A DNA stretch of 64,000 nucleotides from a virus. Taxonomy: Duplodnaviria; Heunggongvirae; Uroviricota; Caudoviricetes. A program made the position numbers and the translations under genes. Below the pieces are notes generated by a model. The model saw nothing but the letters and a program-made list of their open reading frames with translations, had not been told where the DNA came from and ran no database searches. Within the stretch, counting starts at the first letter, position 1. Each line of letters begins with the position of its first letter. Positions 1,705 through 30,753 of the stretch are shown one piece after another. The stretch is taken from the IMG/VR virus record IMGVR_UViG_3300048930_000918; one strand, 5' to 3'.

Positions 1705-1706
1705 AA

Positions 1707-2831
1707 TTAAAATCTAATAGGTGTTCCTGTAAAATGAGGGTTATCATAATAGTTTAACCATCTACCTGTTTGGGAATACTCCTGAGGGCTACTTACCCTA
1801 TTGTAAATAGGTTCTATATCAATTCTTTCTTCCGGTAAGAATTTACGTCTAGCTATTCTACGTCTTGCTCTTTCCTGCTCAAGCTCATAAGCTTCCTGTT
1901 GCGCCATTTCTTCAGGAGTCAGTCTTTGCGCAAGTAACTTGGCCTTAGCGTCTTTTCCTTCCTGCGCAGCTGACTTTGGTTTAGGTCTATTGAACCTATC
2001 ATATACACTAAGTCCAGCTGTACCAAGTGCTAATAGGTTTTTAGGTTTAGTCGCAAAATCCAAGCTATTGGTTTTTAATTTTTCAAAAAAACCTAAATCT
2101 TTTTTACCTCCTCTTTTTCCTTTTCTAACAATATATTCTGTTACATCTTCATCACCAGCGTTATCAAAGTCATAGTCAGCTCCTGCCGATAATCCTTCAC
2201 CTCTACCTCTTCCTCCTATACTAGATAGAGCTCCTCCCCCAGCTAGATAATCAGAAGCACCAAGTGATTTATCAGCTCCGGTAAACGGTAAACCCATACC
2301 TCTAATACCACCTCCCATTTGGGACATGTTACCAAACCAGCTACCCATATTATTACTGCCATAATTCTGAAGAGCACCGCCAATCGAATTAGCACCGAGT
2401 TTGCTTAAACCTTGTCCTACCATATTACCTATCATTGGAGCAGCTACTCCGTAACCGGCTCCTTTTAATGCTCCGATTAAAGGATTCTCTTTATCACCTC
2501 GAATAAGAGAACGTGTTGCCCCACCAAGAGCACCGCCAACTGGTCCACCGAAAATAGCGGCAGTTGTTCCAATAGTATCGGCTATAGTCCGTTTTGGGTT
2601 TTTAATAGTTTTATTTATTGTTCTACCCGGGTTTTTAATGAAGTTCCTGACTCCTCTAAAAAAATACTCTGGTAATCCGGTATCAGGATTAATAGTACCG
2701 CTACCGCCTACTTTTTTAAGCATTTTAGCTTCTAAAGGATTAATATGAGCAAGTACTGTATCGCCTCCTCTTCCTTTTTTCCTTGTTTGCTCCAGAATAT
2801 AATTGACGTCTTTTTTAGTATATTTTTTCAC
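1707..2831 (-). CDS. Gly-rich phage virion protein (374 aa)
   Basis: ORF track. Long Gly/Ala/Ser-rich central region (GGPVGGALGGATRS, GGRGRGEG). Sits in a tight operon with its neighbours, overlapping by 4 nt. Confidence 0.5.
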   Translation of the reverse strand: MKKYTKKDVNYILEQTRKKGRGGDTVLAHINPLEAKMLKKVGGSGTINPDTGLPEYFFRGVRNFIKNPGRTINKTIKNPKRTIADTIGTTAAIFGGPVGGALGGATRSLIRGDKENPLIGALKGAGYGVAAPMIGNMVGQGLSKLGANSIGGALQNYGSNNMGSWFGNMSQMGGGIRGMGLPFTGADKSLGASDYLAGGGALSSIGGRGRGEGLSAGADYDFDNAGDEDVTEYIVRKGKRGGKKDLGFFEKLKTNSLDFATKPKNLLALGTAGLSVYDRFNRPKPKSAAQEGKDAKAKLLAQRLTPEEMAQQEAYELEQERARRRIARRKFLPEERIDIEPIYNRVSSPQEYSQTGRWLNYYDNPHFTGTPIRF

Positions 2832-3109
2832 TTCTTTTTACCTCTAGCGTTAATCATAACAATATACACGGCTTTTGCCCAATCGTCCCAGTTTTTAAAC
2901 TGATCAGTTTTTTTAGAACCTTTTGTAATTGTAGCTGATGGTATACTATTTGTTCTAAATATACCAACACCAGCTATTTTATTAGCCCATTCCTGCCATT
3001 CTTCACCTGCCCTTGGCACTGGTAAACGCTCATTTTTATAATTTTTTATAAGCTCTGCTGACCATTTCTCAAAAGTTATATATTTAGGAAAGGGTAAATT
3101 ATTAATCAT
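2828..3109 (-). CDS. hypothetical phage protein (93 aa)
   Basis: ORF track. Shows the 4-nt overlap coupling typical of this operon. Confidence 0.4.
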   Translation of the reverse strand: MINNLPFPKYITFEKWSAELIKNYKNERLPVPRAGEEWQEWANKIAGVGIFRTNSIPSATITKGSKKTDQFKNWDDWAKAVYIVMINARGKKK

Positions 3110-4725
3110 TGATTACTTCCTTCTTTATAATTAATAAGTATTGTACCGACATTATAAGGGTAAACACAAGTAAAAGTAACAGTCATAAATCTAGCTGAGA
3201 TTCTTAAATCTATTTTACCCGGTGATATTTCAGGATATAGATTATAATTAAGAGGTGTAGTTAATGTTCTAGGGGTACTTGCGTATTTTTTATAACTAAC
3301 ACCTATAATAAGTTGATCGTTAATTGTTCTAGTATAACCGGCTGGAGCTGGAAAATCAGGTTCTATTTGATCTAAAACTATATATTTATCAATAGCGTTA
3401 CCATTTTTAGCCGGATTAAATGCAACAAAACCGAAATAAGGAGTTGTAAAGAAAGAAAAAATATTTTTTTGAATACCACCTAGTCTTACTTCATTGTAAC
3501 CTGTTTCTTGTTTCCATATTGATTTATAACTATTTATTAGGTTATAAGGATAATTAGCACAACTATCACCATAACTAAAAATATCACCGGTAGCTTCATA
3601 GACAGTAACGCAATCACGTCTGATAGCCGTATCGTACCAACTATTTTCCCGCACGTTATAAACAAGCTCTCTAGTGCATCCTATTACTGGATCATTTCTA
3701 TTTATTTTTTCAGGATAAGCCCAGCGTATCTCGCCGTAACGGGCTATTTTATATCCATAAATTTTTTGTCTTTTATTTAAGTCAACGTTTTCAAGGAAAT
3801 ATTCAAAATTAACGTCGTTCTTAACACTATCTACTATGCCGTTATAAACAAAAACTCTATCTGTTCCAAGCCAGAAAAAAAGGCTGTCATATTGAACAAC
3901 TGCTCTTGAAGACATTAAAGATGAATTAGTTGTTATTTCCTCTCTTTGGAAATCAACAGGTTGATCTGCATTAGCAGGATCAGCTACGTTGGTTAAATAT
4001 ATAACTGAGTTTTCTGTCCAGAATAAAAAGCTAGGTGAATTAGTACCACCCCTTATACTTGCTCCAAAGATAAGTTTATTTTCTGATATTTTATAAACAC
4101 CTGAATCTCCTCCTGAAAACTCTAAAGGGTTTCTTGTTCTACTTCTAATAATTGTGCCATTATTACCATATAAGTATAAACAAGGATTGGAAAATAAAAT
4201 TCCACCTGATACAATGTTATTAGTATTACCCGGTATCAGTCCATCGATATAGCCTTGAAAACTATCGTCTTGTAACATACTTTTCCAGTATAAAGTACCA
4301 TTATTAGAACTAAGTATATTATCTCCATTGGAAATAGAAAGTAATGCTAAATAAGGATTACCATCTTGTCCGATAAATTTTGCTGATTGCCATGTTCTGT
4401 TTTGATCATTTGTTAAAAATAAATCCTCTTGTCCTGTATCCGAACCTAAAACAGCAATATCATCGCTAACAGTATTTAGATCAGTAATGCACCTATGTAC
4501 TTGATTGTGTGATGCGTAAATAAGTATATAATTATTGGCCGTATTATAAATAGTTAAAAAGTTAGGTGTAATATTATTTATAGGACGATGAATTTCCTTA
4601 TTACCTTTCATCTTCTTTATTTTACCGCCAACAAATCTTATCCATTGACCATCAATGCAATATTCATCTTGAAACTCAGTACCGTCTCTTTGTATTCCTG
4701 TTTTATATACTAAAGGTATGCGCAT
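3106..4725 (-). CDS. hypothetical phage structural protein (539 aa), possible tail component
   Basis: ORF track. Lies in the structural operon and shares start/stop with the neighbouring ORF at 4725. Confidence 0.5.
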   Translation of the reverse strand: MRIPLVYKTGIQRDGTEFQDEYCIDGQWIRFVGGKIKKMKGNKEIHRPINNITPNFLTIYNTANNYILIYASHNQVHRCITDLNTVSDDIAVLGSDTGQEDLFLTNDQNRTWQSAKFIGQDGNPYLALLSISNGDNILSSNNGTLYWKSMLQDDSFQGYIDGLIPGNTNNIVSGGILFSNPCLYLYGNNGTIIRSRTRNPLEFSGGDSGVYKISENKLIFGASIRGGTNSPSFLFWTENSVIYLTNVADPANADQPVDFQREEITTNSSLMSSRAVVQYDSLFFWLGTDRVFVYNGIVDSVKNDVNFEYFLENVDLNKRQKIYGYKIARYGEIRWAYPEKINRNDPVIGCTRELVYNVRENSWYDTAIRRDCVTVYEATGDIFSYGDSCANYPYNLINSYKSIWKQETGYNEVRLGGIQKNIFSFFTTPYFGFVAFNPAKNGNAIDKYIVLDQIEPDFPAPAGYTRTINDQLIIGVSYKKYASTPRTLTTPLNYNLYPEISPGKIDLRISARFMTVTFTCVYPYNVGTILINYKEGSNQ

Positions 4726-5411
4726 TAATTATTAGCTCTTATTACGGTTCTATCAGCACTTCTATCAGTATTCATCCTATTAATTGTCTCTAGTTCCTGA
4801 TCAAACAATGATTGATATTTATTACGTTTTTCTTCATCATCTAAAAATAAACATGCCTCAATTAAACATGAATAAAGAAGTAGGTTAGGATAACGCTGAG
4901 TAAGGAAATTAACGGGATAGTCTTGATTAAATAAAGGAATACCTTGATATATAATATCAAAATTATAAATAGCATCGCTTGTAGGAGCGAAAAACCATAC
5001 AAAATTACCATAAGTATTTGCTAAGCTATTATTGTTAAGATTTTGGGTATGATCAGCATAATATTTTGGTTTACTTCTTTGTGTATTTTGATATAAAGGC
5101 CAATAGGTTCTGCAAAAATCATAAGACCTTTGTTGAAGAAAGCTTACATTGTTATTAGAATCAATCATTTGAACGCTAATTGTATTTAACCAATTAGCGG
5201 GTTTTTTTAAAATAAATGTTCCAGGTGGTATATTTCTAAATGTTGTTATAATCTCAAAACCCAAATCCTTGGCGTTATTATAAATCCTTATTATCCCTTG
5301 TTGAATTAAATATGGTATTTGGTCAACAAAAGGATTATCTGTCCTAAGCATGTAGGTTTGCAGAGTTTCAATTAGAATAGGATATGTAAGGGTATAATTG
5401 GTATTAGACAT
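4725..5411 (-). CDS. hypothetical phage protein (228 aa)
   Basis: ORF track. First gene of the leftmost minus-strand sub-operon, diverging from the plus-strand gene at 5491. Confidence 0.45.
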   Translation of the reverse strand: MSNTNYTLTYPILIETLQTYMLRTDNPFVDQIPYLIQQGIIRIYNNAKDLGFEIITTFRNIPPGTFILKKPANWLNTISVQMIDSNNNVSFLQQRSYDFCRTYWPLYQNTQRSKPKYYADHTQNLNNNSLANTYGNFVWFFAPTSDAIYNFDIIYQGIPLFNQDYPVNFLTQRYPNLLLYSCLIEACLFLDDEEKRNKYQSLFDQELETINRMNTDRSADRTVIRANN

Positions 5412-5490
5412 CTATAAACTAAGTAATTTATTGATTAAAAATTTAATTTATAATATATTACAATTTTAATACTTTATCATCAAAAACCTT

Positions 5491-5898
5491 ATGAAATCAG
5501 CAGCTAAAATTCCATTTAAAGGTAAAAAGACTCCTTATAACCTAAATGAGGTTGATGTTAACCTTTTACTTAAAAATCCTTCTCATATTCGTAAGGTAGT
5601 TAAAGGTAATTATAAGGAAGAAAGTAACTATGACGAGGATGAGAGTGAGGAAGAGGAAGAGGAAGAGGAAGAAGGTGAGGATGATAAACTAGAATCCCAT
5701 ATGAAGCGTTATATTACCGAGTATTTTGATAACAAATACAATAAGGAAAGAGATCAGCGTAAAAAAGTAAAGCAGAGATTCGATTTCATAGATAATTATA
5801 TACCTAAATTTCCATATAACGCAGTTACAGTCGGTAAAACTTTAACAGAAATAAAAGACGAAGTGCAAAAACGTCGTAAATTAAAAAATAGCAAATAA
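5491..5898 (+). CDS. acidic poly-Glu protein (135 aa); paralog of 55235..55657
   Basis: ORF track. Conserved N-terminus (KIPFKGKKTPYNLNEVDVNLLLKNPSHIRK) shared with the ORF at 55235..55657. Contains a run of 9 Glu and an overall acidic stretch (DEDESEEEEEEEEEGEDD). Confidence 0.55.
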   Translation: MKSAAKIPFKGKKTPYNLNEVDVNLLLKNPSHIRKVVKGNYKEESNYDEDESEEEEEEEEEGEDDKLESHMKRYITEYFDNKYNKERDQRKKVKQRFDFIDNYIPKFPYNAVTVGKTLTEIKDEVQKRRKLKNSK

Positions 5899-6105
5899 TA
5901 AAATAAAAATATTTACAAAACTTTCATAATTTCTTTGTTTTTCTTCCTCTAATCTTAAATTAATGACAGGTACTATTATACCATTAACTATTAAGATATA
6001 AGTTATTAGTTTATAATTAGGTTTTTGTTTATAGAAATACTTATGTTTAAGTATTATAAAATATAGTGATAATCATTATTTTTATTATCAAAACTAAATA
6101 ATACA

Positions 6106-6297
6106 TTAATGATCCAAATAAGGGTTAGGGCATAAATCAGTCATCATCACACAAAGCGCTCCGACTATTTCTGCAATTAATATAAGATTATCTGTCTCAA
6201 TAAATAATAGCCTAGCTAATATTATAAGGATGAAGATGTTTTTAATAAAACTGGCGTTAGATGCTATTAAATTAAAAAAATTCTTCATAGATAACAA
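6106..6297 (-). CDS. small hydrophobic two-helix protein (63 aa); member of a 3-copy family
   Basis: ORF track. Hydrophobic, with the core ARLLFIETDNLILIAEIVGA shared with small ORFs at 54579..54758 and 55083..55238. Confidence 0.4.
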   Translation of the reverse strand: MLSMKNFFNLIASNASFIKNIFILIILARLLFIETDNLILIAEIVGALCVMMTDLCPNPYLDH

Positions 6298-6566
6298 CTA
6301 AAACTTGAGGAGCAAATTGATTTTTAATCTATTGCTCCATAACAGAGAATAATATAATAAGAAAATTTGTATTTGTCAAATTAAAGAAACATTTTGTTCC
6401 CTTAGAAATAAAAAATGTTTCTTTAAGAGTCTAATAACCTTGTAATATTTTAGCAACAGTTAACAACGTATTTATTAATAATTATTTTTTGTATATAAAT
6501 AATTATTGCAATAGAACATAAATAATTATATATCTTAGTTATATTTCAACTAAAAGAGGACTAAAT

Positions 6567-6773
6567 ATGAATTACATATTAAATAGAACACAGAAAATAT
6601 TTAATGCTATCGATAAATTGAAAGAAACAGGTGAACTCACAGAAGATGAGACAACATTTATTAAAAGCCTATCGGCAATGGAACTATCATACATTAGTGA
6701 TGTATTATACCATGCTTATGATTATAAAACAGCTGCTACACTATGGGAGATAATTAAGGATAAGGGGGAGTGA
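6567..6773 (+). CDS. hypothetical protein (68 aa)
   Basis: ORF track. Preceded by the junction motif AAAAGAGGACTAAAT-ATG. Confidence 0.35.
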   Translation: MNYILNRTQKIFNAIDKLKETGELTEDETTFIKSLSAMELSYISDVLYHAYDYKTAATLWEIIKDKGE

Positions 6774-6774
6774 T

Positions 6775-7251
6775 ATGAGAAAATATTTACTGATAATTTT
6801 ATTGTTACCAATTAATTGTTGGGCTAGTTCGGAAACAAATACTTTTAGTGCTATTTGTGAAGTGCAAAAAACTGTTCATGTTCCAATAGGTAACAATGAT
6901 AATAAACCGGAAGCTACTTTTGAATTAGATGAGAAACCTACGGGCGAAACTTACAGGTTAATTATTAATAAAAAAGGTAGAATTAATATTGAGTATAAAT
7001 CAAAAGCAAACCCTTTCTTAGATTGGGATTTAATAAGTGAAATGAAAAAAGACAATGTTAGATTTAACATGCTTAGAGATGAAAAGTATAACCTGGTATT
7101 TATGTTAACATATTTACCTTTTCAAATACGAACCTTTTATTTTGATTTAGATACATCCGGTAATGGATTTTTATCAATTGTTGAAAGTCGCTGGGTTGGT
7201 ATTGTTAAGTATCAAGGTTTAACCTTTTGCATATGTAAAACAAAAAGATAA
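6775..7251 (+). CDS. secreted/exported protein with N-terminal signal peptide (158 aa)
   Basis: ORF track. N-terminus MRKYLLIILLLPINCWASSE is signal-peptide-like. Start is 2 nt after the upstream stop. Confidence 0.45.
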   Translation: MRKYLLIILLLPINCWASSETNTFSAICEVQKTVHVPIGNNDNKPEATFELDEKPTGETYRLIINKKGRINIEYKSKANPFLDWDLISEMKKDNVRFNMLRDEKYNLVFMLTYLPFQIRTFYFDLDTSGNGFLSIVESRWVGIVKYQGLTFCICKTKR

Positions 7252-7256
7252 ATATT

Positions 7257-7469
7257 ATGGATAACTTTTTCAGAAAAATATGTGATTTTTTTATAGGTAT
7301 ATATGGAGTAACAGGAATTTTATTAGCGTTAGCCGCTGGTAGTTTTTATTGGTTCATGCGCATCGCTATTATAATATTCTTAATAGTATTGGTTTTTAAA
7401 TCACTAGGTCTTTTATTGACCATATTTATAATAATATTGTTATTAATTTTCTTTAGAGATGATGATTAA
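7257..7469 (+). CDS. small two-TM membrane protein (70 aa), holin-like topology
   Basis: ORF track. Two hydrophobic segments followed by a charged C-terminus (FRDDD). Confidence 0.4.
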   Translation: MDNFFRKICDFFIGIYGVTGILLALAAGSFYWFMRIAIIIFLIVLVFKSLGLLLTIFIIILLLIFFRDDD

Positions 7470-9757
7470 TTATCGCTAAAATCTCTTGATAATACCACTG
7501 GTAATTTATTGTAATAATTTTTACCTTGATTCAAATAATTATGCTTTTTTAAATTATTATACCAGTTACCAATAGTTCTAGGTTCTATACCTAGAACTTT
7601 TTGGGCATACGCAGGATCAGTTAAAAATTCCTGTAATATGTTATAATTAGGGTTTAACCTTGTCATATTAGAAATTTCTGTTTTAAAAGGTAGTTTAGGT
7701 ATATATTTGGCAACTTTTAAAGGTTGTTGTACTTCCGGACCTAAATAATTAGTTACCATTTCTCTTAATTGGGCCTTTGGTGTTGTAGCTGAACCAAACC
7801 TGGAATTACCGGATGCAACAGTAGCCCTGTTTTTTAAATATTTATTTACTCTGTTAAATTCTTCCAATTCTTCAGGAGAATATATTTCTTTAAGTTTATT
7901 AATTCTTTGTCTTAAAAAATTACTTGATTTATCATAACTAGGTAAAGCACCCTCAATATCTGCTGCCTTATTAAGGTACATATTTCTTATATATGCCTTT
8001 GTCAACTTTTCAGCATCAGTATCTTTTATTTGCTTGGAATATTTACCTACACTTTCTTGGGGAGCTTGCAAAATATGTCTTGCTAAATCATCAGTAGCAG
8101 TTTTATAATCACCCCATTCATCTTTACTAACATATTTCTTTAATAACTTATCCCTATTTATTTCGTTTATATCAGGGGATAATTCCTTGTAAGCTTTTCT
8201 ATGCACCAATCCTTCGGGTGTTGCTTGCAAATCTGCTTCTAACGCTTTCTTTTGATTACTAAAATGTCTGATTAAAGCTTTATCACCACCTTCATCAGAT
8301 CTCTTTATTTGTTTAATTTTTTTACCAATCCTTTTAATGGTATTATCAATATGAACAGGTTTATAATTACCGCTTTCAAGATTGCTTATCTCTTTTTTCA
8401 AATCAACAATTTTTAATGTTTTTTCACGAAGTCCTGGGACTAATTCACTTAATATTTGTTCTTTAGCTTGGAAAGATAAACCTGGATATTTCTCATCTAT
8501 TTCCCTAACAATAGGTGATATATCTTTTTCAAGCACACTTAATTCCTTTTTGGCACTATCCGCTAATTTTTTATATTTAAGAGGTAAAATGTTTTTATTC
8601 TTTCTCAATCTTTCTTCCAGATCATCTACTTCTTTTAAAGCAGCTGATTCAGTATATTTATCTAAGTTCTTAACGGGATATGTTTCGTTTGCTTTTTCCA
8701 ATTGTTCGTATAAAGGAGCTGTCTGTTCTTTTCTTGTTTTCTTAAATTTATTAAGATTATCTACAACAGTTTGCCTTCCAGCTTCCCCTACTTCTACATT
8801 GGTTGGGTTAAGTTTATTACCTACTTCGTTTAATCTATTACGTAAAATTTCATCATTAAGTGCTTGTCTGCGTTGAATATCTGTAAAATTAGGAGCGTAA
8901 ACGTTATGTAAGTTTGAAATATCATTATTTAAAGCAACCTCAGCTGTAACCGGAAATATACCTATTTCTTCAAAATTCTCAGGTCTGAAATTACGTATTT
9001 CAGATAAACCTTTATCTTTTGTTAAATCTTTAACTAGCTTGTTTACCTTGAGTTCCATCCTAGTTTGTTTGTTATTATAACGAGGAAGAATATTTGTAAC
9101 TTTTTTAGTTAACAAAGGAGTATTAACGTTAATACTGGCAAGATCACCTATTGGCTCTGCATATTGTTCCGGTAATCCTATATCTGTTAATTTCTTTGAA
9201 ATTTCATTAGAGACTATACCTGATGCTGCTCCTTGTTTAGCACCTTCTTTAAAACCACTAATTAAAGGTTTCGCTGCTTTTACAGTTCTAGCTGCATTTC
9301 CTGCTTTACTAAGACTTCCTAACAAACCAAAACCACCTGCAAATTCTAATGGTTTTGAAATATATTTCTGCATATTATTCGCAGGCCTTGGTTCTAAATC
9401 AACACCGGTACTTTCTCTAACGTAATCTCTTAAATCTGATGAATCAGGTATATTTGAACTAATAACATCAAGATCAGGAACTTCTACATTATCGTTAGTA
9501 AAGTCGGGAGCATATAATCCACCGGGATTACGATTAGCTTTACTTACAGCTATAGCTTCTAATCCTTGTGCCCCTAGTTTAGGTAAATCACCAATAGAAG
9601 TAATACCTTTAAGAAAAGATTTACCAGCTGTTGATAACAACGTTTCACTTGGTTTATCCGGAACAAAACGTAAATCATCAATATTATCATTAACTACTGC
9701 TACGTCTTCATCGGGAATAAACCTTAAATCTTCTAAGGAGTTCATTTTAAATCCCAT
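7466..9757 (-). CDS. large phage virion protein (763 aa); paralog of 51054..53324
   Basis: ORF track. Shared blocks with 51054..53324 (e.g. PVTAEVALNN.IS.LHN.YAPN). Overlaps the upstream gene by 16 nt. Confidence 0.6.
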   Translation of the reverse strand: MGFKMNSLEDLRFIPDEDVAVVNDNIDDLRFVPDKPSETLLSTAGKSFLKGITSIGDLPKLGAQGLEAIAVSKANRNPGGLYAPDFTNDNVEVPDLDVISSNIPDSSDLRDYVRESTGVDLEPRPANNMQKYISKPLEFAGGFGLLGSLSKAGNAARTVKAAKPLISGFKEGAKQGAASGIVSNEISKKLTDIGLPEQYAEPIGDLASINVNTPLLTKKVTNILPRYNNKQTRMELKVNKLVKDLTKDKGLSEIRNFRPENFEEIGIFPVTAEVALNNDISNLHNVYAPNFTDIQRRQALNDEILRNRLNEVGNKLNPTNVEVGEAGRQTVVDNLNKFKKTRKEQTAPLYEQLEKANETYPVKNLDKYTESAALKEVDDLEERLRKNKNILPLKYKKLADSAKKELSVLEKDISPIVREIDEKYPGLSFQAKEQILSELVPGLREKTLKIVDLKKEISNLESGNYKPVHIDNTIKRIGKKIKQIKRSDEGGDKALIRHFSNQKKALEADLQATPEGLVHRKAYKELSPDINEINRDKLLKKYVSKDEWGDYKTATDDLARHILQAPQESVGKYSKQIKDTDAEKLTKAYIRNMYLNKAADIEGALPSYDKSSNFLRQRINKLKEIYSPEELEEFNRVNKYLKNRATVASGNSRFGSATTPKAQLREMVTNYLGPEVQQPLKVAKYIPKLPFKTEISNMTRLNPNYNILQEFLTDPAYAQKVLGIEPRTIGNWYNNLKKHNYLNQGKNYYNKLPVVLSRDFSDN

Positions 9758-10872
9758 CCTCTATTTTTAGCTTCTTCTAAGTCTTCAAGATGTACTTTTC
9801 CAGTTTTACCTGTTTTGATGTTAACGATAGCAACATAACCATTTTGATCTGGAATCGGTTGTGTTCCTTCTTCTGTCTCAGGTAAATCACTTATATCGTA
9901 AGCTATACCTTGGTCAGCACTTATATTAGCTGCTTGAGCTTCTAAAGCCATTTCTCTATTTAAATCTTTTAATTTTTCTTCTAACGTAGGTAAACTGTCT
10001 TTTTCATTAGGAAAAAATGGTGATAACCTATCATAAAAACCTTGTCCTAACACACCTTGTCCTTTTAAAGCTCTTTCAGCATTAACACGGAACTTACCCA
10101 GGGTAGCGTATAATAATTTTCGTTTGGCTGTTTCATCCTGATAATCTTTTATATCGAATACATCCCCTATGAAATCTTTAACAGGATTAGCTATAAATGA
10201 TACACCACCCATAGGGGCATATGTATTATTTTTTGTAATATCCTTTAAGTTTGACAACTCTGTGTCTATTTTATCAAGTTCATGTTGTGATGTATTAATA
10301 GCTTTTTTAACATTATTAGCTTTTCTCTGCTCTACCTTATCTAATTTTTTATAAGGTTTACCTTCATAATCAACAGTTTGCCCTACTCCATTAGCCATCT
10401 TAGCCATCAAAGACTGATTATGATAATCCCTTATCTCACCAAGCTTCTCATGCTCTAACGCCATTTTCTGATCGTTCATCTCTCTATTATAGGCATCCTG
10501 CTCCATACGAGCTGCTTTAGCTTCCTCACCCGCTCTAAACCTTCGTGCCATATCAGCGTGCAGACTATTCTGATGTTGAGCTGCCATCTCTGACTCATCA
10601 TAAGCTCTCATACCAGCGGGGACTCCTCTAGCTGCTGCGGCAAACTTACCCATAAAGCCTCTACCGGTAGGCGTCTGATCTTGGTTTAACGCCTCACTAA
10701 AACCCATTAAGCCGTTGCGGAACGCTCTATCTGATTGATCTTCATCAAGTGCTAAAGATTGTTTGGCACTTTTAACAGCACGCATCACACCCTCATCAAA
10801 AGGTGATTTCTTCTGCATATTCTGGTCAATATATGCCTGACGATCAAGCATGTCCTGGATGTATTTGCTCAT
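9742..10872 (-). CDS. phage virion protein (376 aa); paralog of 53328..54350
   Basis: ORF track. N-terminal ~140 aa nearly identical to 53328..54350 (MSKYIQDMLDRQAYIDQNMQKKSPFDEGVMRA...). Confidence 0.6.
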   Translation of the reverse strand: MSKYIQDMLDRQAYIDQNMQKKSPFDEGVMRAVKSAKQSLALDEDQSDRAFRNGLMGFSEALNQDQTPTGRGFMGKFAAAARGVPAGMRAYDESEMAAQHQNSLHADMARRFRAGEEAKAARMEQDAYNREMNDQKMALEHEKLGEIRDYHNQSLMAKMANGVGQTVDYEGKPYKKLDKVEQRKANNVKKAINTSQHELDKIDTELSNLKDITKNNTYAPMGGVSFIANPVKDFIGDVFDIKDYQDETAKRKLLYATLGKFRVNAERALKGQGVLGQGFYDRLSPFFPNEKDSLPTLEEKLKDLNREMALEAQAANISADQGIAYDISDLPETEEGTQPIPDQNGYVAIVNIKTGKTGKVHLEDLEEAKNRGWDLK

Positions 10873-10874
10873 AA

Positions 10875-11270
10875 TTAAAAGTTTAAAGGTGTTTCATTAA
10901 GTACGCTAAATGTTATTTCACAATCAAATAACTGACTAGGGCTATTTGAAAAACAAACCAGATTCTCAGTAACAATAGGATTAGTATTGCTATATTTAAG
11001 TATAAGCTGCATATCAAAATAAGCAATAACATCAACTGTTTGATATGATTTAACCTCAAATTCCTTAATTTTAAAAATACTAACAGGACTAGTTTGTACC
11101 CTATTCTTTTTTAAATTAAATCTTATTGGCTGATTACCTAAATTAACTAAAGAAATACCATTGATTATTAAAGTATGAGGATAATTTATCGAATCAGTAC
11201 CTATTAAAGTTGTTTGCCCGTTACTTAAATTAGCATATGGTAAAGGTTCATAATTTATAAATACCCCCAT
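10875..11270 (-). CDS. hypothetical phage protein (131 aa)
   Basis: ORF track. Start is 3 nt from the upstream stop. Confidence 0.45.
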   Translation of the reverse strand: MGVFINYEPLPYANLSNGQTTLIGTDSINYPHTLIINGISLVNLGNQPIRFNLKKNRVQTSPVSIFKIKEFEVKSYQTVDVIAYFDMQLILKYSNTNPIVTENLVCFSNSPSQLFDCEITFSVLNETPLNF

Positions 11271-11276
11271 AGATAT

Positions 11277-11504
11277 TTACCTGCAAATAGTATTTTTAAT
11301 CTCTTCCAAACTATTTTTCATATCTTCGCATAAGCTATTGATTAATGCGCATGAGTTTTTAAATTCTTCAGATTCTTTATTAGGATTATTTATAATTTGC
11401 GCTACCGCTGTTTTTACATTTTCCCATTCAATAGCAATATTGTTAACAATATTAGCCTTTTTCTTTTGTTCAGCTATTAAAGCTTTAATCTGTTCGTTGT
11501 TCAT
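11277..11504 (-). CDS. hypothetical small protein (75 aa)
   Basis: ORF track. Lies in the operon immediately downstream of the fibre gene. Confidence 0.4.
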   Translation of the reverse strand: MNNEQIKALIAEQKKKANIVNNIAIEWENVKTAVAQIINNPNKESEEFKNSCALINSLCEDMKNSLEEIKNTICR

Positions 11505-11519
11505 TTTACCTCTTTATTA

Positions 11520-14500
11520 TTAAATAATTCCAAAATAAATAGCACTGATAGATACGTTTTTAGCAGTAAGTGTTCCGCTAATAGCTCCTCCGGTACTATT
11601 AGATGCTGAGTAGTATAACTCAAAAGTGTCAAGATTAGAAATATTAGTTACAACACTAAATGATAAATATGCGTAATTACCGCTATAGCTAATTGAACTC
11701 ATTATATCAGTACCATTTTTATATAAAAAATACTTCTGATAAGCACTAGATGAAGTATGATAACTTACAATCGATACATTTATAAGTGCTCTGTACGTTT
11801 TATTTAAATTAGACGTAAATAAAGTAGGTGTATTAGGAGCTGCTCCTGTGTTAAAATTAGTTATGTCTCTATAAATCACATTGCTTGATTGAACAACTAC
11901 GTTAGATGTTGAACCTGAAGTAGAAACACCTATATTATTATCTGTCCATAGAAGACTTATTGAAGGTGGATTATCGATTATATTAGCACAACTAATTCTT
12001 CCGGTGCCTTCACCTACTATTAAATCCGTTCCATTTATACCTAAATTACAAGTATTGCTTGCGCTAGCTATAGAACCTGCTCCTATTGCTATTGCGTTTG
12101 TATAATTAACATCGGCAACATTTGCCTCTGATCCTATTGCTATATTAGTACTTCCTGTTTCATTACCAAAGAGGGCTCTGTACCCCAAAGCTACGTTATT
12201 AGAACCGGATGTATTATAATATAATGCTTCACGACCAATGGATGTGTTATATCCCCCTGTGGTATTTGAAAATAAAGATTGATAACCTAATGATGAGTTG
12301 TTTATTCCGTTAGTATTTGAATTTAATACTTGATAACCGATCGCCGTATTGTCATTACCATTTATATTAGACAACATTGACTCATGACCGAATACAATAT
12401 TTCTAGCACCTATAGTATTAGATGAAAGAGAACTAAATCCAAAAGCCAAATTACCATTACCTGTAGTATTACCTTGTAAAGCCTCTAGACCAAAAGCGTA
12501 ATTACTTTGACCGGTAGTATTGTTGTATAGAGCTTGCCATCCAAATGCTAAATTACCACTTGCTGTTGTATTAGCTTGCAAAGCTTCTTCACCGATAGCA
12601 ATGTTATAGTTTCCTGTTGTATTACTATATAAACTTTTTGTACCTATACCTAAATTAATATACCCTGTTGTATTACTATAAAGAGCTTGATATCCAAAAG
12701 CTGAATTTGAATATCCTGTTGTATTAGCTTGCATGGCTTGATAACCTAATGCCGAGTTACTTTCTGCACTGGTATTATTAAACAAAGAATTAAATCCAAC
12801 AGCAGTGTTATAAGACCCTGTTGTGTTATAATACAGAGCTTGATAACCAAAAGAACTGTTATGTCTACCTGTACTATTTGTAAATAGCGTATTATGTCCA
12901 AACGCACTATTAGCTATAGCCGTTGTGTTATTACGTAAGCTATTGAAACCGAATGCGCAGTTATTATAACCAGTTGTATTAGAAAATAAGGATTGGTAAC
13001 CAAAAGCATTGTTTGTCGAACCTTCAGCAGTACTATCATCATATGTAACATTATTATAAAGAGCTTGGTAACCGAAAGCAGAGTTATACAAACCTAAAGT
13101 GTTAGAATATAAAGCTTGATAACCAAAAGCCGACAAATTAGATTTTAAATTTCTATATAAAGATTGATATCCAAAAGCTACGTTATTACTAGTCGATACG
13201 TTATAATAAAGAGCCTCTGTTCCAAAAGCTGAGTTATTAGAACCTGATTCATTACTATATAATGTTTGATAACCATAAGCACAGTTACCTGATGATCCAA
13301 TATTATTTGTTAAAGACGAATTACCCACAGCACAGTTTGTACCTCCAGTAGTATTTGAATTTAATGAGTTTATACCATAAGCAACGTTGTTATTTCCATT
13401 TGTGTTAGAAGCTAAACTTTGTAACCCGTAAGCACAATTAAAAGAACCTCCTGAATTAGATATAAGAGATTGTGAACCAAAAGCACTATTAGCCGTTCCG
13501 CTTGTATTGGAAGTTAATACATCATAGCCGAATGCACAATTATTAGACCCATTTATATTACTATATAAAGCTCTATAACCAAAACCACTATTATTACCTC
13601 CTATTGTAGTAGAATATAGGGTTTGATACCCAAAAGCTGAATTGTTATCTGCTGATATATTAGAAAAAAGGCTTTGGTAACCAAAAGCTGAATGACCTTC
13701 ACCATTAGTGTTTTTATTCAAGGATTGATACCCAAAAGCTGAGTTGTTGTTAGTAGTATTATCTTTTAATGCTTCTACCCCAAAAGCGGCATTATTGCTT
13801 CCTCCCACATTAGAATGTAAAGAATTATAACCATATGCGCAATTATTGCTTCCTGATACATTAGAATATAAAGACTCAACCCCAAAAGAAGAGTTGCAAT
13901 CACTTCCTACGTTAGAAAAAAGAGAGCTATTACCGAACGCAGAATTATTATCACCTGTTGTATTAGAAAAAAGACTTTGATATCCATATGAGCTGTTACT
14001 TGCACCTATTGTATTTGAATACAAACTTTGATTACCAAAAGTAGAGTTATAACTAGCCGATACGTTAGAAAAAAGAGATTCTGTTCCAAAAGCACAATTA
14101 TATTCACCTGTAGTATTTGAATATAAAGTATGGTAACCTAAAGAAGAATTATTACTAGCAGTAGTTGAAGAATATAAAGCCCTATCACCAACAGCAACAT
14201 TACAACCACCTCCTATATTAGCTCTTAAGGATTGATAACCTATTGCTGTGTTAAAATCCCCGTCTACATTTGAATATAAAGCTTGATATGAATATGCCGA
14301 ATTATGTTCACCTATTGTATTAGAATATAAACTTTGATAACCGAAAGAAGAATTGTTACTACCGGAAACATTTGAGTTAAAAGCTTGAAATCCAAATGCA
14401 CTATTAGCTGTTCCTGACGTATTGAACTGTAAAGCCTGATAACCGAATGCTGAATTAAAACTATTAGTGTTGTAAAAAAGGCTTTGTGTTCCAAAAGCCG

Positions 14501-16007
14501 AATTACCATTACCTATTAAGTTATTACGTAATGTTTCTAATCCGAAAGCAACGTTATCACTACCTCCGGTATTATTTAACAAAGAATCTATACCGAAACA
14601 ATGATTGTCATTACCTGTAGTATTTGCGTTACCTGCATTTATACCTAAAAATATATTATTACTTACATTTTTTAATGTAACATTAGACCAGTTAGGGCTT
14701 GTCGAAGCTCCTGATATAAATAACCTATTAGCTAGAACAGGAACAGCCAAACTAACAATGGAATCACTAGCTCCGCCTATTAAAACTGAGTTATTTGTAA
14801 CGTTTTGAATAGCTACGTTAGTTAAACCTAAATTAGCTCTTGATGTAGAAACGTCATCAACATCAGATAAATTATTAAGTACTTGTAAGAAACTAGAAGG
14901 CCCGTATGCAAATTTTATAAAACTTATAGGGTCTGTTCCAACTGTTGTAACAACAAGTGTCTCAAGCCAAATAGTAGTATAGTTTATAGTACCTACTTCG
15001 ACAGGTATAATTGTCCCCGGATGTATCTCAATATCAGTGTCATAATCAGTAGAACGAGTTAATACCCATGCCGTTGAACCATCACCGACAACTGTTACAA
15101 CGTAGATACCATTTTCATATTGAGTGGTTTGATCTTTAACAAGAATCCTATCATTAACGCTAACAGCTTCATCATCAATTACTAATGCAGCTAAAGCACC
15201 TGAATTAGTAAGTGTAGCACCTACTCCTGATGTACCATTGCTATAAGTACCCGTTAAATTAGCTGTAGTAGCTGCGTAACAAGGAGCTCTAAAACTAAAA
15301 CCGGCAGCAATAGCGTCCACATAACCTTTATTTGCGGCTTGTTGATCCAATACCGGAGCTGGTACAAGTAATGGTACGTCATTTGCAAAAGTAACAGTTG
15401 TATCGGTTCCACCTGTGTTTTCAACAGTAAATACGTTTTGAACTGATCCTAAATTGTTAATCAAATTAAAATTAAAAGTTCCGTATTCCGTGTTTAAATA
15501 AGGAGTATCTTGTAAAAATTGATATTTATAACCGTTATTATTTACAAAATTAAACTCTGTTAAAGAAGATTCCCCAGGATCATTAGCATTAAAATTATTT
15601 AATAAATTAAAAGAAACAGGTTGAACCGCTACTGCGCTGTAAGAAATAGTTTGAGTCGAACCTTGTACGTTTATAACAGGAGGTACTGTTATAGGTACAT
15701 TAAAAGTTATTGTATTATCGTTATTAAAACTAATAAAATCAAATCCGGTAGGACTTGCTCCAACGTAACTTTGAATTGTTAATTTACCAATAGTATCGGT
15801 ATCATTAGTAGCGTGAATCCACCTAAAACCCGATAAAGTATTATTCCTAAATTCAAAACTTGTTTGAGGTGTAATTAAACTTGTCGGAACAAACAGGTTT
15901 TGTAACTGAAACGAAGAAGCAGGTTGATTGAAAATAAATTGTTGTGTATCCCCAAGGATGGATAACGCAGGTGTTATCCCGGATACTGTTATACTGCTCA
16001 TGGCCAT
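11520..16007 (-). CDS. giant tail fibre / adhesin-like protein (1495 aa) with a beta-solenoid-type repeat array
   Basis: ORF track. About 45 tandem 17-residue repeats with consensus N-S-A-F-G-Y-Q-[AS]-L-x-S-N-T-x-G-x-x over roughly aa 470-1250. Distinct N- and C-terminal domains. Positioned beside the coiled-coil fibre gene. Confidence 0.7.
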   Translation of the reverse strand: MAMSSITVSGITPALSILGDTQQFIFNQPASSFQLQNLFVPTSLITPQTSFEFRNNTLSGFRWIHATNDTDTIGKLTIQSYVGASPTGFDFISFNNDNTITFNVPITVPPVINVQGSTQTISYSAVAVQPVSFNLLNNFNANDPGESSLTEFNFVNNNGYKYQFLQDTPYLNTEYGTFNFNLINNLGSVQNVFTVENTGGTDTTVTFANDVPLLVPAPVLDQQAANKGYVDAIAAGFSFRAPCYAATTANLTGTYSNGTSGVGATLTNSGALAALVIDDEAVSVNDRILVKDQTTQYENGIYVVTVVGDGSTAWVLTRSTDYDTDIEIHPGTIIPVEVGTINYTTIWLETLVVTTVGTDPISFIKFAYGPSSFLQVLNNLSDVDDVSTSRANLGLTNVAIQNVTNNSVLIGGASDSIVSLAVPVLANRLFISGASTSPNWSNVTLKNVSNNIFLGINAGNANTTGNDNHCFGIDSLLNNTGGSDNVAFGLETLRNNLIGNGNSAFGTQSLFYNTNSFNSAFGYQALQFNTSGTANSAFGFQAFNSNVSGSNNSSFGYQSLYSNTIGEHNSAYSYQALYSNVDGDFNTAIGYQSLRANIGGGCNVAVGDRALYSSTTASNNSSLGYHTLYSNTTGEYNCAFGTESLFSNVSASYNSTFGNQSLYSNTIGASNSSYGYQSLFSNTTGDNNSAFGNSSLFSNVGSDCNSSFGVESLYSNVSGSNNCAYGYNSLHSNVGGSNNAAFGVEALKDNTTNNNSAFGYQSLNKNTNGEGHSAFGYQSLFSNISADNNSAFGYQTLYSTTIGGNNSGFGYRALYSNINGSNNCAFGYDVLTSNTSGTANSAFGSQSLISNSGGSFNCAYGLQSLASNTNGNNNVAYGINSLNSNTTGGTNCAVGNSSLTNNIGSSGNCAYGYQTLYSNESGSNNSAFGTEALYYNVSTSNNVAFGYQSLYRNLKSNLSAFGYQALYSNTLGLYNSAFGYQALYNNVTYDDSTAEGSTNNAFGYQSLFSNTTGYNNCAFGFNSLRNNTTAIANSAFGHNTLFTNSTGRHNSSFGYQALYYNTTGSYNTAVGFNSLFNNTSAESNSALGYQAMQANTTGYSNSAFGYQALYSNTTGYINLGIGTKSLYSNTTGNYNIAIGEEALQANTTASGNLAFGWQALYNNTTGQSNYAFGLEALQGNTTGNGNLAFGFSSLSSNTIGARNIVFGHESMLSNINGNDNTAIGYQVLNSNTNGINNSSLGYQSLFSNTTGGYNTSIGREALYYNTSGSNNVALGYRALFGNETGSTNIAIGSEANVADVNYTNAIAIGAGSIASASNTCNLGINGTDLIVGEGTGRISCANIIDNPPSISLLWTDNNIGVSTSGSTSNVVVQSSNVIYRDITNFNTGAAPNTPTLFTSNLNKTYRALINVSIVSYHTSSSAYQKYFLYKNGTDIMSSISYSGNYAYLSFSVVTNISNLDTFELYYSASNSTGGAISGTLTAKNVSISAIYFGII
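12250..14600 (-). repeat. in-frame 51-nt tandem coding repeat array (about 45 units) inside the 1495-aa gene
   Basis: Periodicity is visible in the translated protein (..NSAFGYQALYSNTTG..). Spurious antisense ORFs 14312..14509 and 14605..14808 fall inside it. Confidence 0.7.
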
Positions 16008-17230
16008 AATATTTCTACCCTATCGTGCATTAAATCCCAAAGAAAAGTAAAACTAACTGCGTCAAAATCTTCATCCGGGTTTTGTTGTAAATTCTTAACT
16101 CTATCACCACCCATGTCTAAATCACCGGGTGTTCTTATTGTGTCTATAACCCCTGCTATAGGCGGTCCACCTTCCACAAATCCGGTTATTGTAATATTAG
16201 TAGCTGTTCCTATAGCTGCTTCCAATGTTTGTAAATTAACTCCGTCTGTCGGGTTAACAGGATTAGCTAGATTTATTAATTTATAATTGTAAAAAGAGAC
16301 ATCACCGTCAGCAGGTATGGTGTTTAGTCTTAGATTATCAATTCTATTATTCAAGTCTGTTATTTGTCCATCAATAATAGCTACCTGAGCCTGAAGAGCT
16401 GTTACCGCCGCATCTAAAGCTACTACTTGTGCTTGAAGAGCAGTTACTGCAGCGTCTAATGCTGCAATTTGACCCTGTAATGCTAATATTTCACCTTCTA
16501 TAAAATCTACTTCTAGTTCTAACTCATCAACATCAATCTCAAGTAAACTTAAGTCATCTGACTTTTCTGTAATTGCCTCAAAAGAAGAGTTAAGAGCACC
16601 CCTCCATATTTTACCTCTACCCTCTATTAACGGGTGTTCAACTCCGGTATATACTCCTAAATCCGGTAAGTTACTTTCATCTATTTGCTTTTCAGCCTCA
16701 GGTCTATTGCTTCCGTTACCCCTCCATATTCGGTTATGATCTAATCCAGGTAGATTTCCAGTTTTAATAGTACTTGCAGCAGCAGGTCTTCCACTACTAT
16801 TACCTAGCCATAATTTATTTTCGGCTAGGTTAGCCATATTAGCTAAAGGTAAAATAATAGTTTCTTTAGGTCTGTTATTATCATCACCTATCCAAACATT
16901 ACCTTGTGTTAAATTAGGAAGAGAAGAAGGAGGTATGACACCTGTTGTGCTAACAATACCTGCCGTGTTATATAAAATTCCGTCTGCTAAACTATTTAAA
17001 ACCTGAGCATTCGGTAACTGTGAATTTGGAAAACCTATAATAAAAGAAGCTGAAGCACAAACGCTATAATCACGTCTTAAATTTATTAAATCTAATCTTA
17101 AATCAATTAATGCCGGTGAAGGGGTAGCTATTCCTTGTCTGTTACCAACTAAAGCATAGTTATAGTCAGCAAGAACCCTGCCTGTAACAGGTGATATAAA
17201 ATTATGTAAAATATCAAACTTAATTTTCAT
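15998..17230 (-). CDS. tail fibre-like protein with trimeric coiled-coil segment (410 aa)
   Basis: ORF track. Heptad-repeat segment LQGQIAALDAAVTALQAQVVALDAAVTALQAQVAIIDGQITDL. Overlaps the fibre gene by 10 nt. Confidence 0.55.
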   Translation of the reverse strand: MKIKFDILHNFISPVTGRVLADYNYALVGNRQGIATPSPALIDLRLDLINLRRDYSVCASASFIIGFPNSQLPNAQVLNSLADGILYNTAGIVSTTGVIPPSSLPNLTQGNVWIGDDNNRPKETIILPLANMANLAENKLWLGNSSGRPAAASTIKTGNLPGLDHNRIWRGNGSNRPEAEKQIDESNLPDLGVYTGVEHPLIEGRGKIWRGALNSSFEAITEKSDDLSLLEIDVDELELEVDFIEGEILALQGQIAALDAAVTALQAQVVALDAAVTALQAQVAIIDGQITDLNNRIDNLRLNTIPADGDVSFYNYKLINLANPVNPTDGVNLQTLEAAIGTATNITITGFVEGGPPIAGVIDTIRTPGDLDMGGDRVKNLQQNPDEDFDAVSFTFLWDLMHDRVEILWP

Positions 17231-18508: not shown

Positions 18509-18518
18509 TTCATACCTG

Positions 18519-19824: not shown

Positions 19825-19838
19825 TTTACGTAAATAAA

Positions 19839-20671: not shown

Positions 20672-20682
20672 TTGCTACCTCC

Positions 20683-21618: not shown

Positions 21619-21648
21619 TTATTTAACCTCTTTATATTTCATTAATTA

Positions 21649-24001: not shown

Positions 24002-24002
24002 C

Positions 24003-25486: not shown

Positions 25487-25496
25487 TTGCTACCTA

Positions 25497-26094: not shown

Positions 26095-26099
26095 TATTT

Positions 26100-30159: not shown

Positions 30160-30179
30160 ATAGTTACAGTTAATATATA

Positions 30180-30747: not shown

Positions 30748-30753
30748 ATAGTA

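Follow-up and report, generated by a model that had tools for sequence, protein, structure and literature searches.

Satellite P4 encodes a primase-helicase (alpha) and an integrase, exists as a plasmid or in integrated form, and uses the structural genes of its helper. The window analyzed here, a stretch of 64,000 nucleotides from a tailed-phage record (IMGVR_UViG_3300048930_000918), contains a discrete 22.6-kb unit that can be compared with P4 and with the PICIs, SaPIs and VEIMEs. We propose that this unit is a phage satellite of plasmid-like build and that the phage to which it is joined is its presumed helper, a reading to which we assign a probability of about 60%. The element holds the second copy of a two-gene module, A/B, whose first copy lies in the phage late operon. 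Its boundaries and genes, together with the phage small terminase, are as follows.

41276..63873 (no strand): plasmid-like, satellite-type element of 22,598 bp, holding the second A/B module
41276..41402 (+): left copy of a direct repeat, beginning 9 nt upstream of the primase ATG
41285..43678 (+): primase-helicase, 797 aa, with PriCT_2 and DnaB_C
46065..46194 (no strand): 22-bp repeat array, 5.9 copies of CCCAGTAGGGATAGGGTGTGCG, candidate replication origin or pac region
46465..47082 (+): small-terminase (TerS) paralog (phrog_309, E 4e-15)
48671..49627 (-): Rep_3 initiator (Pfam Rep3_N, E 2.9e-28; Rep3_C, E 2.3e-15)
49677..49744 (no strand): iterons, 3.1 copies of 22 bp with 100% matches, 50 nt upstream of the Rep_3 start
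49976..50800 (-): Bro-N domain protein (Pfam), adjoining B2 in most, not all, element versions
61728..62330 (+): ParA-type partition ATPase
62863..63822 (+): tyrosine recombinase/integrase, ending 51 nt ahead of the right repeat
63874..64000 (+): second (right) repeat copy, matching the left one at 100% identity; the window end truncates it, so the repeat is at least 127 bp
30754..31281 (-): phage small terminase, paralog of 46465..47082

How does the element compare with known satellites? Like PICIs, SaPIs and VEIMEs, it has an integrase beside a direct repeat, its own primase/helicase module with a repeat array behind it (recognized by annotation) and a TerS with a homolog in the co-occurring phage, and neither Pfam nor PHROGs detected a capsid, portal, large terminase (TerL) or tail gene in 41276..63873. 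VEIMEs have been described with the same gene set (PMC9618062). AlpA-type genes lie upstream of the primase in two variants of the element (L013 and L008), and no AlpA-type regulator was seen in the window's copy. However, the element is larger (22.6 kb) than these satellites and adds a Rep_3/iteron replicon and ParA, which make a plasmid life style likely. In this contig it resides within a phage genome rather than a bacterial chromosome. Its host is an obligate intracellular Rickettsiales bacterium, its helper dependence is presumptive, and in place of genes for capsid size or packaging interference it has paralogs of late proteins, probably internal ones of the virion. The element-to-phage size ratio of 0.40 recalls the P4/P2 pair and is near the ~1/3 usual for satellites. 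P4 differs in lacking both a TerS and ejection-protein paralogs and in having the capsid resized by Sid and Psu, and there is no sequence relationship between P4 and the element. The element additionally resembles Rep_3 iteron plasmids in its initiator with WH1 and WH2 domains (the Rep3_N and Rep3_C matches), the three perfect 22-bp iterons just ahead of the rep gene and the presence of ParA; in L011, an analogous array of another sequence lies upstream of the Rep_3 gene. It differs from such plasmids by its phage-derived packaging and late genes, its second replication module and its integrase.

At the left boundary, a cassette common to phages and elements extends from the repeat to about 42193. 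Collinearity of the phage relatives with the window extends from TerS to 42193 and is lost beyond it, the match of element contig L013 at this boundary is restricted to 41285..42193, and residues 1-314 of the primase-helicase are 82-84% identical to the phage primase. An all-against-all comparison of the window's ORFs limits the phage-gene paralogs in the element to TerS, A, B, an acidic protein and a small hydrophobic protein. The TerS pair, which is absent from the earlier note on this DNA, shows 36% identity (E 1e-24), and the element TerS is 99% conserved in other element copies. Possession of its own TerS paralog points to a satellite-type relation to the phage rather than to passive capture. 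The proposal in that note that the module had been captured by a plasmid-like element is right in part: it comes near, but omits the discrete, repeat-bounded unit and its TerS. The cargo consists of an MFS transporter and a SpoT-like HD protein, with an LRR protein in one relative. To judge from its genes, the element can probably replicate and segregate by itself by means of the primase-helicase, Rep_3 with its iterons, and ParA. Given its lack of capsid, portal, large terminase and tail genes, it would depend on the phage for transfer.

The element also occurs without phage DNA. The gene order in L068 (ParA, o90, resolvase, primase, TerS, o282, Rep3, Bro-N, B2, A2, hydrophobic, acidic) is that of the window element closed on itself, and the element is likewise free of phage DNA in L007 (a Megaira MAG), L008, L011, L013 and L014. 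The contigs that carry it elsewhere, 19-35 kb long, bear plasmid genes; none has clear chromosomal flanks, and chromosomal residence between att sites was not seen among them. A search of IMG/VR did not find the element, and its packaging is accordingly putative. In the window, by comparison, the element is joined to a phage genome. The phage partner is short-tailed and belongs to Megaira-type intracellular bacteria. Its close relatives are closed at 56.6-57.6 kb without the element, and the assembly that yielded L013 also contains one such relative, closed at 56.6 kb and with only one A gene. Subtraction of the element's 22,598 bp from the joined 78,933 bp leaves 56,335 bp, which fits these relatives. 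The window is best explained as the greater part of a podophage of roughly 56 kb (1..41275, and expected to resume after 63874) plus the element, joined to it at the 5' end of the phage primase gene.

Megaira polyxenophila plasmid unnamed2 (CP113869.1; 64.4 kb, circular) and pPCS109 (AP017967.1) carry a related podophage operon (TerL 50%, portal 34% and MCP 30% identical) that likewise includes patatin, the adaptor and s539, and they share ParA and the SpoT-like HD and MFS cargo. They further encode distant counterparts of A and B: A2 shares 27% identity with the A-like protein across 282 aa, and aa 41-203 of B2 share 51% with the beginning of the B-like one. These phage-plasmids differ in that their single pair follows the s374 and 758-aa genes instead of lying between tailspike and adaptor, and the block of Rep_3, Bro-N, A2 and B2 was not found in either of them.

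The two copies of the module and the genes beside them are located as follows.

4725..5411 (-): SU10-type adaptor homolog, bounding the late-operon A/B slot on its far side
5491..5898 (+): acidic protein 1, 135 aa, alongside A/B in most related phages
6106..6297 (-): small hydrophobic protein, phage copy, 63 aa
7466..9757 (-): B1, 763 aa, all-alpha and basic, with a variable N-terminal ~200 aa and a conserved C-terminal ~560 aa
9742..10872 (-): A1, 376 aa, conserved N-terminal domain (aa 1-150) and class-1 C-terminal domain, in the phage late operon
51054..53324 (-): B2, 756 aa, paralog of B1
53328..54350 (-): A2, 340 aa, conserved N-terminal domain and class-2 C-terminal domain
54590..54757 (-): small hydrophobic protein, element copy, 55 aa
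55083..55247 (-): small hydrophobic protein, 54 aa, paralog of 6106..6297
55235..55657 (-): acidic protein 2, 140 aa, paralog of acidic protein 1

The earlier note had reported that a two-gene module is present twice in the window, and both the ORFs and their pairwise alignments bear this out. A1 and A2 are 64% identical across 238 aa (BLASTP, E 4e-99), and B1 and B2 are 38% identical in their C-terminal ~560-565 aa (E 5e-101), whereas their N-terminal ~200 aa, Gly/Ala/Ser-rich in B1, are unrelated to each other. The A1 stop and the B1 start overlap by 16 nt, and A and B constitute a translationally coupled late-protein pair. The N-termini of A, described in that note as near-identical, are strongly conserved, but the wording was too strong: 127 of the 150 residues are the same (85%), with nucleotide identity of 77-85% in 50-codon windows. 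Beyond residue 150, similarity is undetectable in such windows, and what had been taken for diverged remainders are non-homologous replacements, of which several classes are shuffled through the family. In the N-terminal domain, dS is 0.7-2.8 and dN is ~0.09, values that indicate purifying selection rather than recent gene conversion, in agreement with the functional constraint that had been suggested for this domain. The similarity lies in ordered helical sequence with 21 residues invariant across the family and is not confined to low-complexity stretches, a concern that the note had raised itself. Its description of the surroundings of the second copy was also accurate: Pfam identifies both Rep_3 and Bro-N beside it, and the accompanying paralogs share 65% identity for the acidic proteins (5491..5898 and 55235..55657, on opposite strands; E 2e-39) and 46% over 37 aa for the small hydrophobic proteins at 6106..6297 and 55083..55247 (E 4e-6). 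Intact A2 and B2 genes are present not only in the window but also in at least five further assemblies, and their dN/dS of 0.11-0.21 against four other element copies denotes purifying selection. B2 is 95-98% identical between element copies from six assemblies, and all five element paralogs of phage genes are intact. A2/B2 are best explained as a second, functional allele beside the phage's own late-operon allele.

Copy 1 has a fixed position among the late genes of a podophage family known from metagenomes, in which the order tailspike, s75, s131, A, B and SU10-type adaptor is kept in about 25 phage loci. The pair is built from shuffled segments: the A N-terminal domain is invariant, the C-terminal segment of A and both segments of B vary, and three of the four segments have several non-homologous classes. 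A2-type and B2-type segments are also found in the canonical phage slot, and the late operon of one phage (L002) includes a second A/B-like pair. The module is mosaic and mobile, with examples in phages, in plasmid-like elements and in phage-plasmids.

What are the functions of A and B? We consider them probable ejection proteins, carried inside the virion and accompanying the DNA. Like SU10 gp20-24, T7 gp14-16 and P22 gp7/gp20/gp16, they are encoded amid the tail and adaptor genes of a late operon; large size, an all-alpha make-up, Gly/Ala-rich stretches and the lack of a conserved enzymatic core are further features shared with podophage ejection proteins. SU10 releases five such ejection proteins (PMC9509320), and its adaptor is of the same family as that of the A/B phages. 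A and B match the solved ejection proteins neither in sequence nor in fold. Among 14 diverse A/B proteins, no known domain was found in Pfam or PHROGs; searches of A and B against PDB, by sequence profile and by Foldseek with the models, gave nothing below E 0.1, and none of these four routes led to a characterized relative. In BFVD, the B model matched 38 large phage proteins (Foldseek, E <= 1e-3) with TM-scores of 0.15-0.45; as a hint toward an ejection role, one of them is called 'Injection protein (Fragment)' and another 'LT_GEWL domain containing protein'. The BFVD matches also include 'Large polyvalent protein associated domain' proteins. These would suit A and B as DNA-accompanying establishment or anti-defence proteins, comparable to P1 Dar, T4 internal or 'polyvalent' proteins, instead of channel-forming ejection proteins, as would the extreme mosaicism of the module and its range of settings. 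An establishment or anti-defence role would account for both the phage and the plasmid-like element keeping their own alleles and for the free shuffling of segments. However, the low TM-scores weaken this comparison, and the 14 proteins contain no enzymatic or known anti-defence domain. We regard such a role as unlikely; it would still require A and B to be packaged and hence overlaps with the ejection-protein assignment.

The relation of the element to the phage can be read in other ways. The join may be an assembly artefact, for which the assembler would have walked from the phage through the repeat, a separate circular 22.6-kb plasmid and the repeat again back into the phage; the module would nonetheless be duplicated in the cell, on two replicons. 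The two visible repeat copies are 100% identical, so that a short-read assembler could thread two replicons together, and a 2.8-kb contig from another sample (L053), 100% identical to 61174..63997, ends 124 nt into the repeat, as a graph branch predicts. Other element contigs of 19-21 kb are also expected if assemblies break at the repeat. However, a Campbell-type or integrase-mediated insertion would produce the same path, an integrase adjoins the junction, and 78,933 bp as the sum of phage and element is within the spread of relatives; we give the artefact a real but minor chance. It is unlikely that the contig represents a single ~79-kb phage-plasmid genome, with the 22.6-kb block as a maintenance/accessory region, A2/B2 as an alternative late-protein set (for example, for a second host type) and the repeat as a by-product of modular recombination. 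The contig as assembled does unite phage structural genes with plasmid replication and partition genes, and CP113869.1 and AP017967.1, which combine a whole structural operon with ParA, HD and MFS genes, indicate that such genes can belong to one phage-plasmid. The second pair in the L002 operon and the A2- and B2-type segments in the canonical slot also fit this reading. By contrast, the plasmid genes all lie within the repeat-bounded, separable unit, which is missing from the closed phage relatives and occurs alone, in the same circular order, on other contigs. The block has a second TerS and no TerL, and 79 kb would be ~40% above the genomes that this capsid family packages, as estimated from their sizes. 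The earlier note offered, as one option, a degraded second prophage, that is, the decay remnant of a second phage. The isolation of the second module from other structural genes could suggest decay, but the intact paralogs, the purifying selection on A2/B2 and the near-identity of B2 between assemblies contradict it. Moreover, the all-against-all comparison turned up no capsid, portal or tail pseudogene fragments, and the genes around A2/B2 make up a conserved replicon that bears the marks of a working one (Rep_3-adjacent iterons and ParA). We therefore reject the degraded prophage as very improbable.

We favor the plasmid-like satellite joined to its helper. In this model, the element TerS would direct packaging of element DNA, and A2/B2 would enter helper particles via the conserved A N-terminal domain. 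Phage and element may have been joined by recombination within the shared ~0.9-kb primase cassette, through either an integrase-mediated or a homologous (Campbell-type) route. A more specific version is put forward tentatively, as a possibility at less than even odds: a satellite of Megaira-type Rickettsiales that replicates and partitions as a plasmid, docks in the helper genome via the primase cassette, and brings a TerS and its own ejection-protein alleles, so that satellite-carrying particles would deliver satellite-specified proteins together with the DNA. If true, it would to our knowledge be new among described satellites in two ways: its host is an obligate intracellular bacterium, and the helper factors that it replaces are ejection proteins, not those for capsid size or packaging. 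Horizontal transfer in Rickettsiales and other obligate intracellular bacteria is poorly understood, and a phage with a hitchhiker plasmid bearing host-interaction cargo would offer a concrete route. What satellites are known to take from their helpers would be widened from terminase or capsid factors to probable ejection proteins. The strictly conserved 150-residue A domain provides a clear target for studying the recruitment of internal proteins to the heads of podophages. The A/B family comprises 249 clusters at 50% identity, without annotation, and its single natural A-B fusion (P0176) suggests that A and B work together.

A two-gene module occurs twice in this DNA: A1 (376 aa) and B1 (763 aa) in a phage late operon, and A2 (340 aa) and B2 (756 aa) in a 22,598-bp plasmid-like segment (41276..63873), here called the element. 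An earlier note, made by a model from the sequence alone, had reported this duplication, and it is real: the open reading frames of both modules lie at the coordinates reported there, and pairwise alignments of both protein pairs support the observation.

7466..9757, minus strand, B1
9742..10872, minus strand, A1
51054..53324, minus strand, B2
53328..54350, minus strand, A2

The A proteins align with an E-value of 4e-99. Their N-termini had been called near-identical over ~140 residues; the strong conservation holds, at an identity of 85% over 150 residues (127/150 identical; 77-85% nucleotide identity in 50-codon windows), and the same windows detect no similarity beyond residue 150. B1 and B2 are 38% identical over their last ~565 residues (E 5e-101) and unrelated over the first ~200 in pairwise alignment. 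The similarity is not an artefact of low-complexity sequence. Paralogs of the acidic protein (65% identity) and of the small hydrophobic proteins (one per set related, 46% over 37 aa) accompany copy 2 as the note had described, and Pfam searches place Rep_3 and Bro-N beside it. In the conserved A domain, dS between A1 and A2 is 0.7-2.8 and dN is ~0.09, and thus purifying selection has acted on old copies. The suggestion of a functionally constrained domain agrees with the dN/dS of 0.04-0.11 along it, and recent gene conversion as the cause of this conservation is ruled out by the dS values.

Copy 1 belongs to a podophage of roughly 56 kb, whose late operon on the minus strand is podovirus-type according to PHROG matches:

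30754..31281, minus strand, small terminase (TerS)
28615..30159, minus strand, large terminase
26100..28472, minus strand, portal
20683..21618, minus strand, major capsid protein
17227..18300, minus strand, patatin-like phospholipase (also Pfam, E 1.6e-19)
late operon, minus strand, needle-like protein
late operon, minus strand, tailspike of 1495 aa

The A and B homologs form 87 and 43 clusters, respectively, all metagenomic and without annotation. Approximately 25 related phage loci share the order s361, patatin, needle, spike, s75, s131, A and B (s, o and hyd numbers are ORF labels), followed by small divergently transcribed o68, hyd63 and acidic genes and then by an SU10-type adaptor, s539, s93 and s374. 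Given this conserved order, copy 1 and its acidic and hydrophobic companions are a regular part of the phage family. Cultured relatives are remote, with the portal ~29% identical to those of HTVC023P-type pelagiphages and of Roseobacter and Caulobacter podophages. DNA and protein searches of INPHARED phages with module 1 returned no match, nor did searches of GTDB genome contigs or of IMG/VR with B1 and B2. Two observations indicate that the phage also occurs without the element. One phage relative, JACCDN011177399.1, closes at 56,649 bp with a single A gene split across its ends, and it comes from the same assembly as the element contig L013. The database contig that carries the window's A1 is 78,933 bp long, is probably the source contig of the window, and measures 56,335 bp after subtraction of 22,598 bp, the size of the closed relatives.

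Several other features of the phage deserve mention. Within the virion operon, the patatin-like phospholipase gene is flanked by s361 and the gene for the needle-like protein. Almost every related phage locus retains it, as do the Megaira plasmids, and it may encode a virion-borne membrane-active enzyme. In the tailspike gene, diverged repeats of 51 nt (17 residues) form a long tract (12162..14650) with a consensus peptide resembling NSAFGYQSLYSNTTG. A GroES-like co-chaperonin gene (25497..25904) follows the portal gene, an arrangement likewise annotated in Pelagibacter phage HTVC023P and a Megaira plasmid. An SPFH/Band 7 protein gene (35187..36041) is missing at the same place in two related phage contigs, L044 and L045, whose DNA match skips from 35167 to 36040, giving an insertion of ~870 bp in the window. 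Two additional genes separate o68 from B1 (6775..7469); one product has 158 aa and begins like a signal peptide, and the other is a very hydrophobic 70-aa protein. Neither gene matched any of the related loci, in which o68 follows B within ~1 kb; this segment looks like a moron-type insertion.

What are the A and B proteins? Searches of Pfam and PHROGs with A1, A2, B1, B2 and ten diverse B proteins identified no family, and profile searches and Foldseek comparisons of AF2 models of A1 and B1 with the PDB gave nothing below E 0.1. The AlphaFold models are all-alpha, with a mean pLDDT of 70 for A1 (low confidence in the conserved N-domain) and 67 for B1 (75-94 for residues 230-650). The B model matched, at low TM-scores, 38 large proteins from uncultured tailed phages. 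These proteins are uncharacterised, and a few are labelled as injection, LT-domain or polyvalent-protein-associated proteins. Neither A nor B contains transmembrane segments; A is acidic, whereas B is basic and its N-terminal region is rich in Gly/Ala/Ser. The A1 and B1 genes overlap by 16 nt, and A and B are naturally fused in one database entry (P0176, 1083 aa); therefore, A and B act together.

The family is also mosaic. All members share the A N-domain, while several unrelated classes exist for each of the other three segments (A C-terminus, B N-terminus and B C-terminus), and these classes combine differently between loci. A2-type and B2-type segments also occupy the canonical phage slot in three loci (L015, L028 and L049), which are the counter-examples that exclude strict co-variation of the A C-terminus and B N-terminus classes despite an odds ratio of 3.4 across loci, calculated with relatedness ignored. 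As a separate observation, the last ~25 residues of A1 (VNIKTGKTGKVHLEDLEEAKNRGW, 9742..9840), a beta-hairpin followed by a helix in the AF2 model, are similar to a motif that occurs twice in the N-terminal part of B2 (KVQSRDGRIWDIKPENVGKAFERGG and KVQSKDGKLWKIKVKNIPEALRRGG, 53130..53324), and the same small unit seems to flank the A/B gene boundary on both sides.

The position of A and B among the tail genes of the late operon is a hallmark of ejection proteins. SU10, which has an adaptor of the same family as the window phage, ejects five proteins whose genes lie next to those for its tail (PMC9509320). When tested, A and B fell into no characterised ejection-protein family. From gene position, composition and mosaicism, we give roughly even odds to A and B being internal proteins that are ejected or co-injected.

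The element is delimited by an exact direct repeat (41276..41402 and 63874..64000; spacing 22,598 bp) of at least 127 nt, a lower bound because the window end cuts the right copy. Phage sequence lies to the left of the left copy and a tyrosine integrase gene (62863..63822) to the left of the right copy; a tRNA scan found no att target tRNA. The repeat starts 9 nt before the primase-helicase ATG (41285). Collinearity of L044 and L045 with the window extends through the small terminase, o183 and primase residues 1-314 (to nucleotide 42193); both contigs then continue with a VapE-type helicase domain, DUF2800 and SNF2 helicase genes that are missing from the window. The match of L013 to the window is here confined to 41285..42193, and thus a primase N-terminal cassette of ~0.92 kb is common to phages and elements; this cassette and the direct repeat have an identical start point. 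The element contains the following features:

from 41285, primase-helicase with PriCT_2 and DnaB_C
486-aa ORF
46065..46194, 22-bp tandem repeats, six copies of CCCAGTAGGGATAGGGTGTGCG, between the 486-aa ORF and the TerS paralog
46465..47082, small-terminase paralog (phrog_309, E 4e-15), 36% identical to the phage TerS
282-aa ORF
49677..49744, 22-bp repeats, three perfect copies of CAGCTGTAAAAACCTCATAGTT, just upstream of Rep_3
Rep_3 (Pfam)
Bro-N, B2, A2, two small hydrophobic proteins and the acidic protein
several unknown ORFs
SpoT-like HD protein, MFS transporter, ParA and integrase

Capsid, portal, large-terminase and tail genes are absent from 41276..63873, where paralogs of phage genes are limited to those for TerS, A, B, the acidic protein and a hydrophobic protein. 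The 49677..49744 repeats look like Rep_3 iterons. The 46065..46194 array, which differs in sequence and is G+C-rich within an A+T-rich region, may serve as a second origin or as a pac site.

The block occurs without phage DNA in other assemblies. L007, a contig of a Megaira endosymbiont MAG (host Stentor roeselii), has 87% DNA identity to 48705..54475. Four contigs of 19-21 kb (L008, L011, L013 and L014) are collinear with window 46.5-61 kb and differ in their primase modules, with AlpA-type genes in some. The 35.5-kb contig L068 carries ParA, o90, ProQ, serine resolvase, DUF927 primase, TerS-like (99%), o282, toxin-antitoxin, Rep_3 (100%), Bro-N, B2 (98%), A2 (93%), hydrophobic and acidic genes, the order of the window block closed on itself with no phage DNA between. 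The note had offered a degraded prophage as one origin of copy 2; we reject it because A2 and B2 are intact in every copy, with a dN/dS of 0.11-0.21. The cargo of one version of the element (L013, 432..2337) includes a PD-(D/E)XK transposase and a leucine-rich-repeat protein; leucine-rich-repeat proteins are typical host-interaction factors in intracellular bacteria.

With two replication modules, two repeat arrays and ParA, the element is predicted to replicate and partition, and its lack of capsid, portal, large-terminase and tail genes would leave it unable to build particles. It retains a TerS and, under purifying selection, alleles of two late proteins; these genes are useful only when a phage is present, and therefore we infer that the element is a satellite-type hitchhiker. 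The element TerS would direct the helper's large terminase onto element DNA, A2 would enter helper procapsids via the N-domain that is 85% common with A1, and A2 and B2 would travel along with the element DNA. Recombination in the shared primase cassette, beside the integrase gene that adjoins the junction, may have joined element and phage. The element/phage size ratio (22.6/56.3 = 0.40) is within the range usual for satellites.

The junction can be read in other ways. The entire contig could be one phage-plasmid, with a parallel in the deposited 'plasmids' of Candidatus Megaera polyxenophila (CP113869.1, loci L046 and L047; AP017967.1, locus L048). These carry a complete related podophage structural operon together with ParA, toxin-antitoxin, SpoT-like HD and MFS genes and look like phage-plasmids themselves; their sole A/B-like pair is a distant one, located at the position that follows the 767-aa gene in L002, a 62.9-kb phage contig of a different lineage with a canonical 378/580-aa pair. 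L002 has a distant second pair inserted there (18931..20837); it encodes 310 aa and 324 aa, the latter matching only the B N-terminus, and sibling contigs have no such insertion. The phage-element join could also be an assembler path through the repeat, consistent with a 2.8-kb contig, assembled from a different sample, whose sequence equals 61174..63997 and ends 124 nt into the repeat. Under either alternative, copy 2 is still part of a plasmid-like unit that is separable and functional.

PICI- and VEIME-like satellites lack structural genes and are characterized by a recombinase, repeats at their flanks, a primase/helicase and a TerS homolog (PMC9618062). The element, read as a satellite-type hitchhiker, shares this gene content. 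However, its backbone is that of a Rep_3/ParA plasmid, it is located in a phage genome instead of a chromosome, it carries late-protein paralogs, and its host is probably of the Megaira lineage. We found no description in the literature of satellites with ejection-protein paralogs and no detailed one of Megaira phages. Pelagibacter was rejected as a host: similarity to HTVC023P-type pelagiphages is distant (~29%) and confined to the portal, the element is 87% DNA-identical to the Megaira MAG contig, and the Megaira plasmids share the operon.
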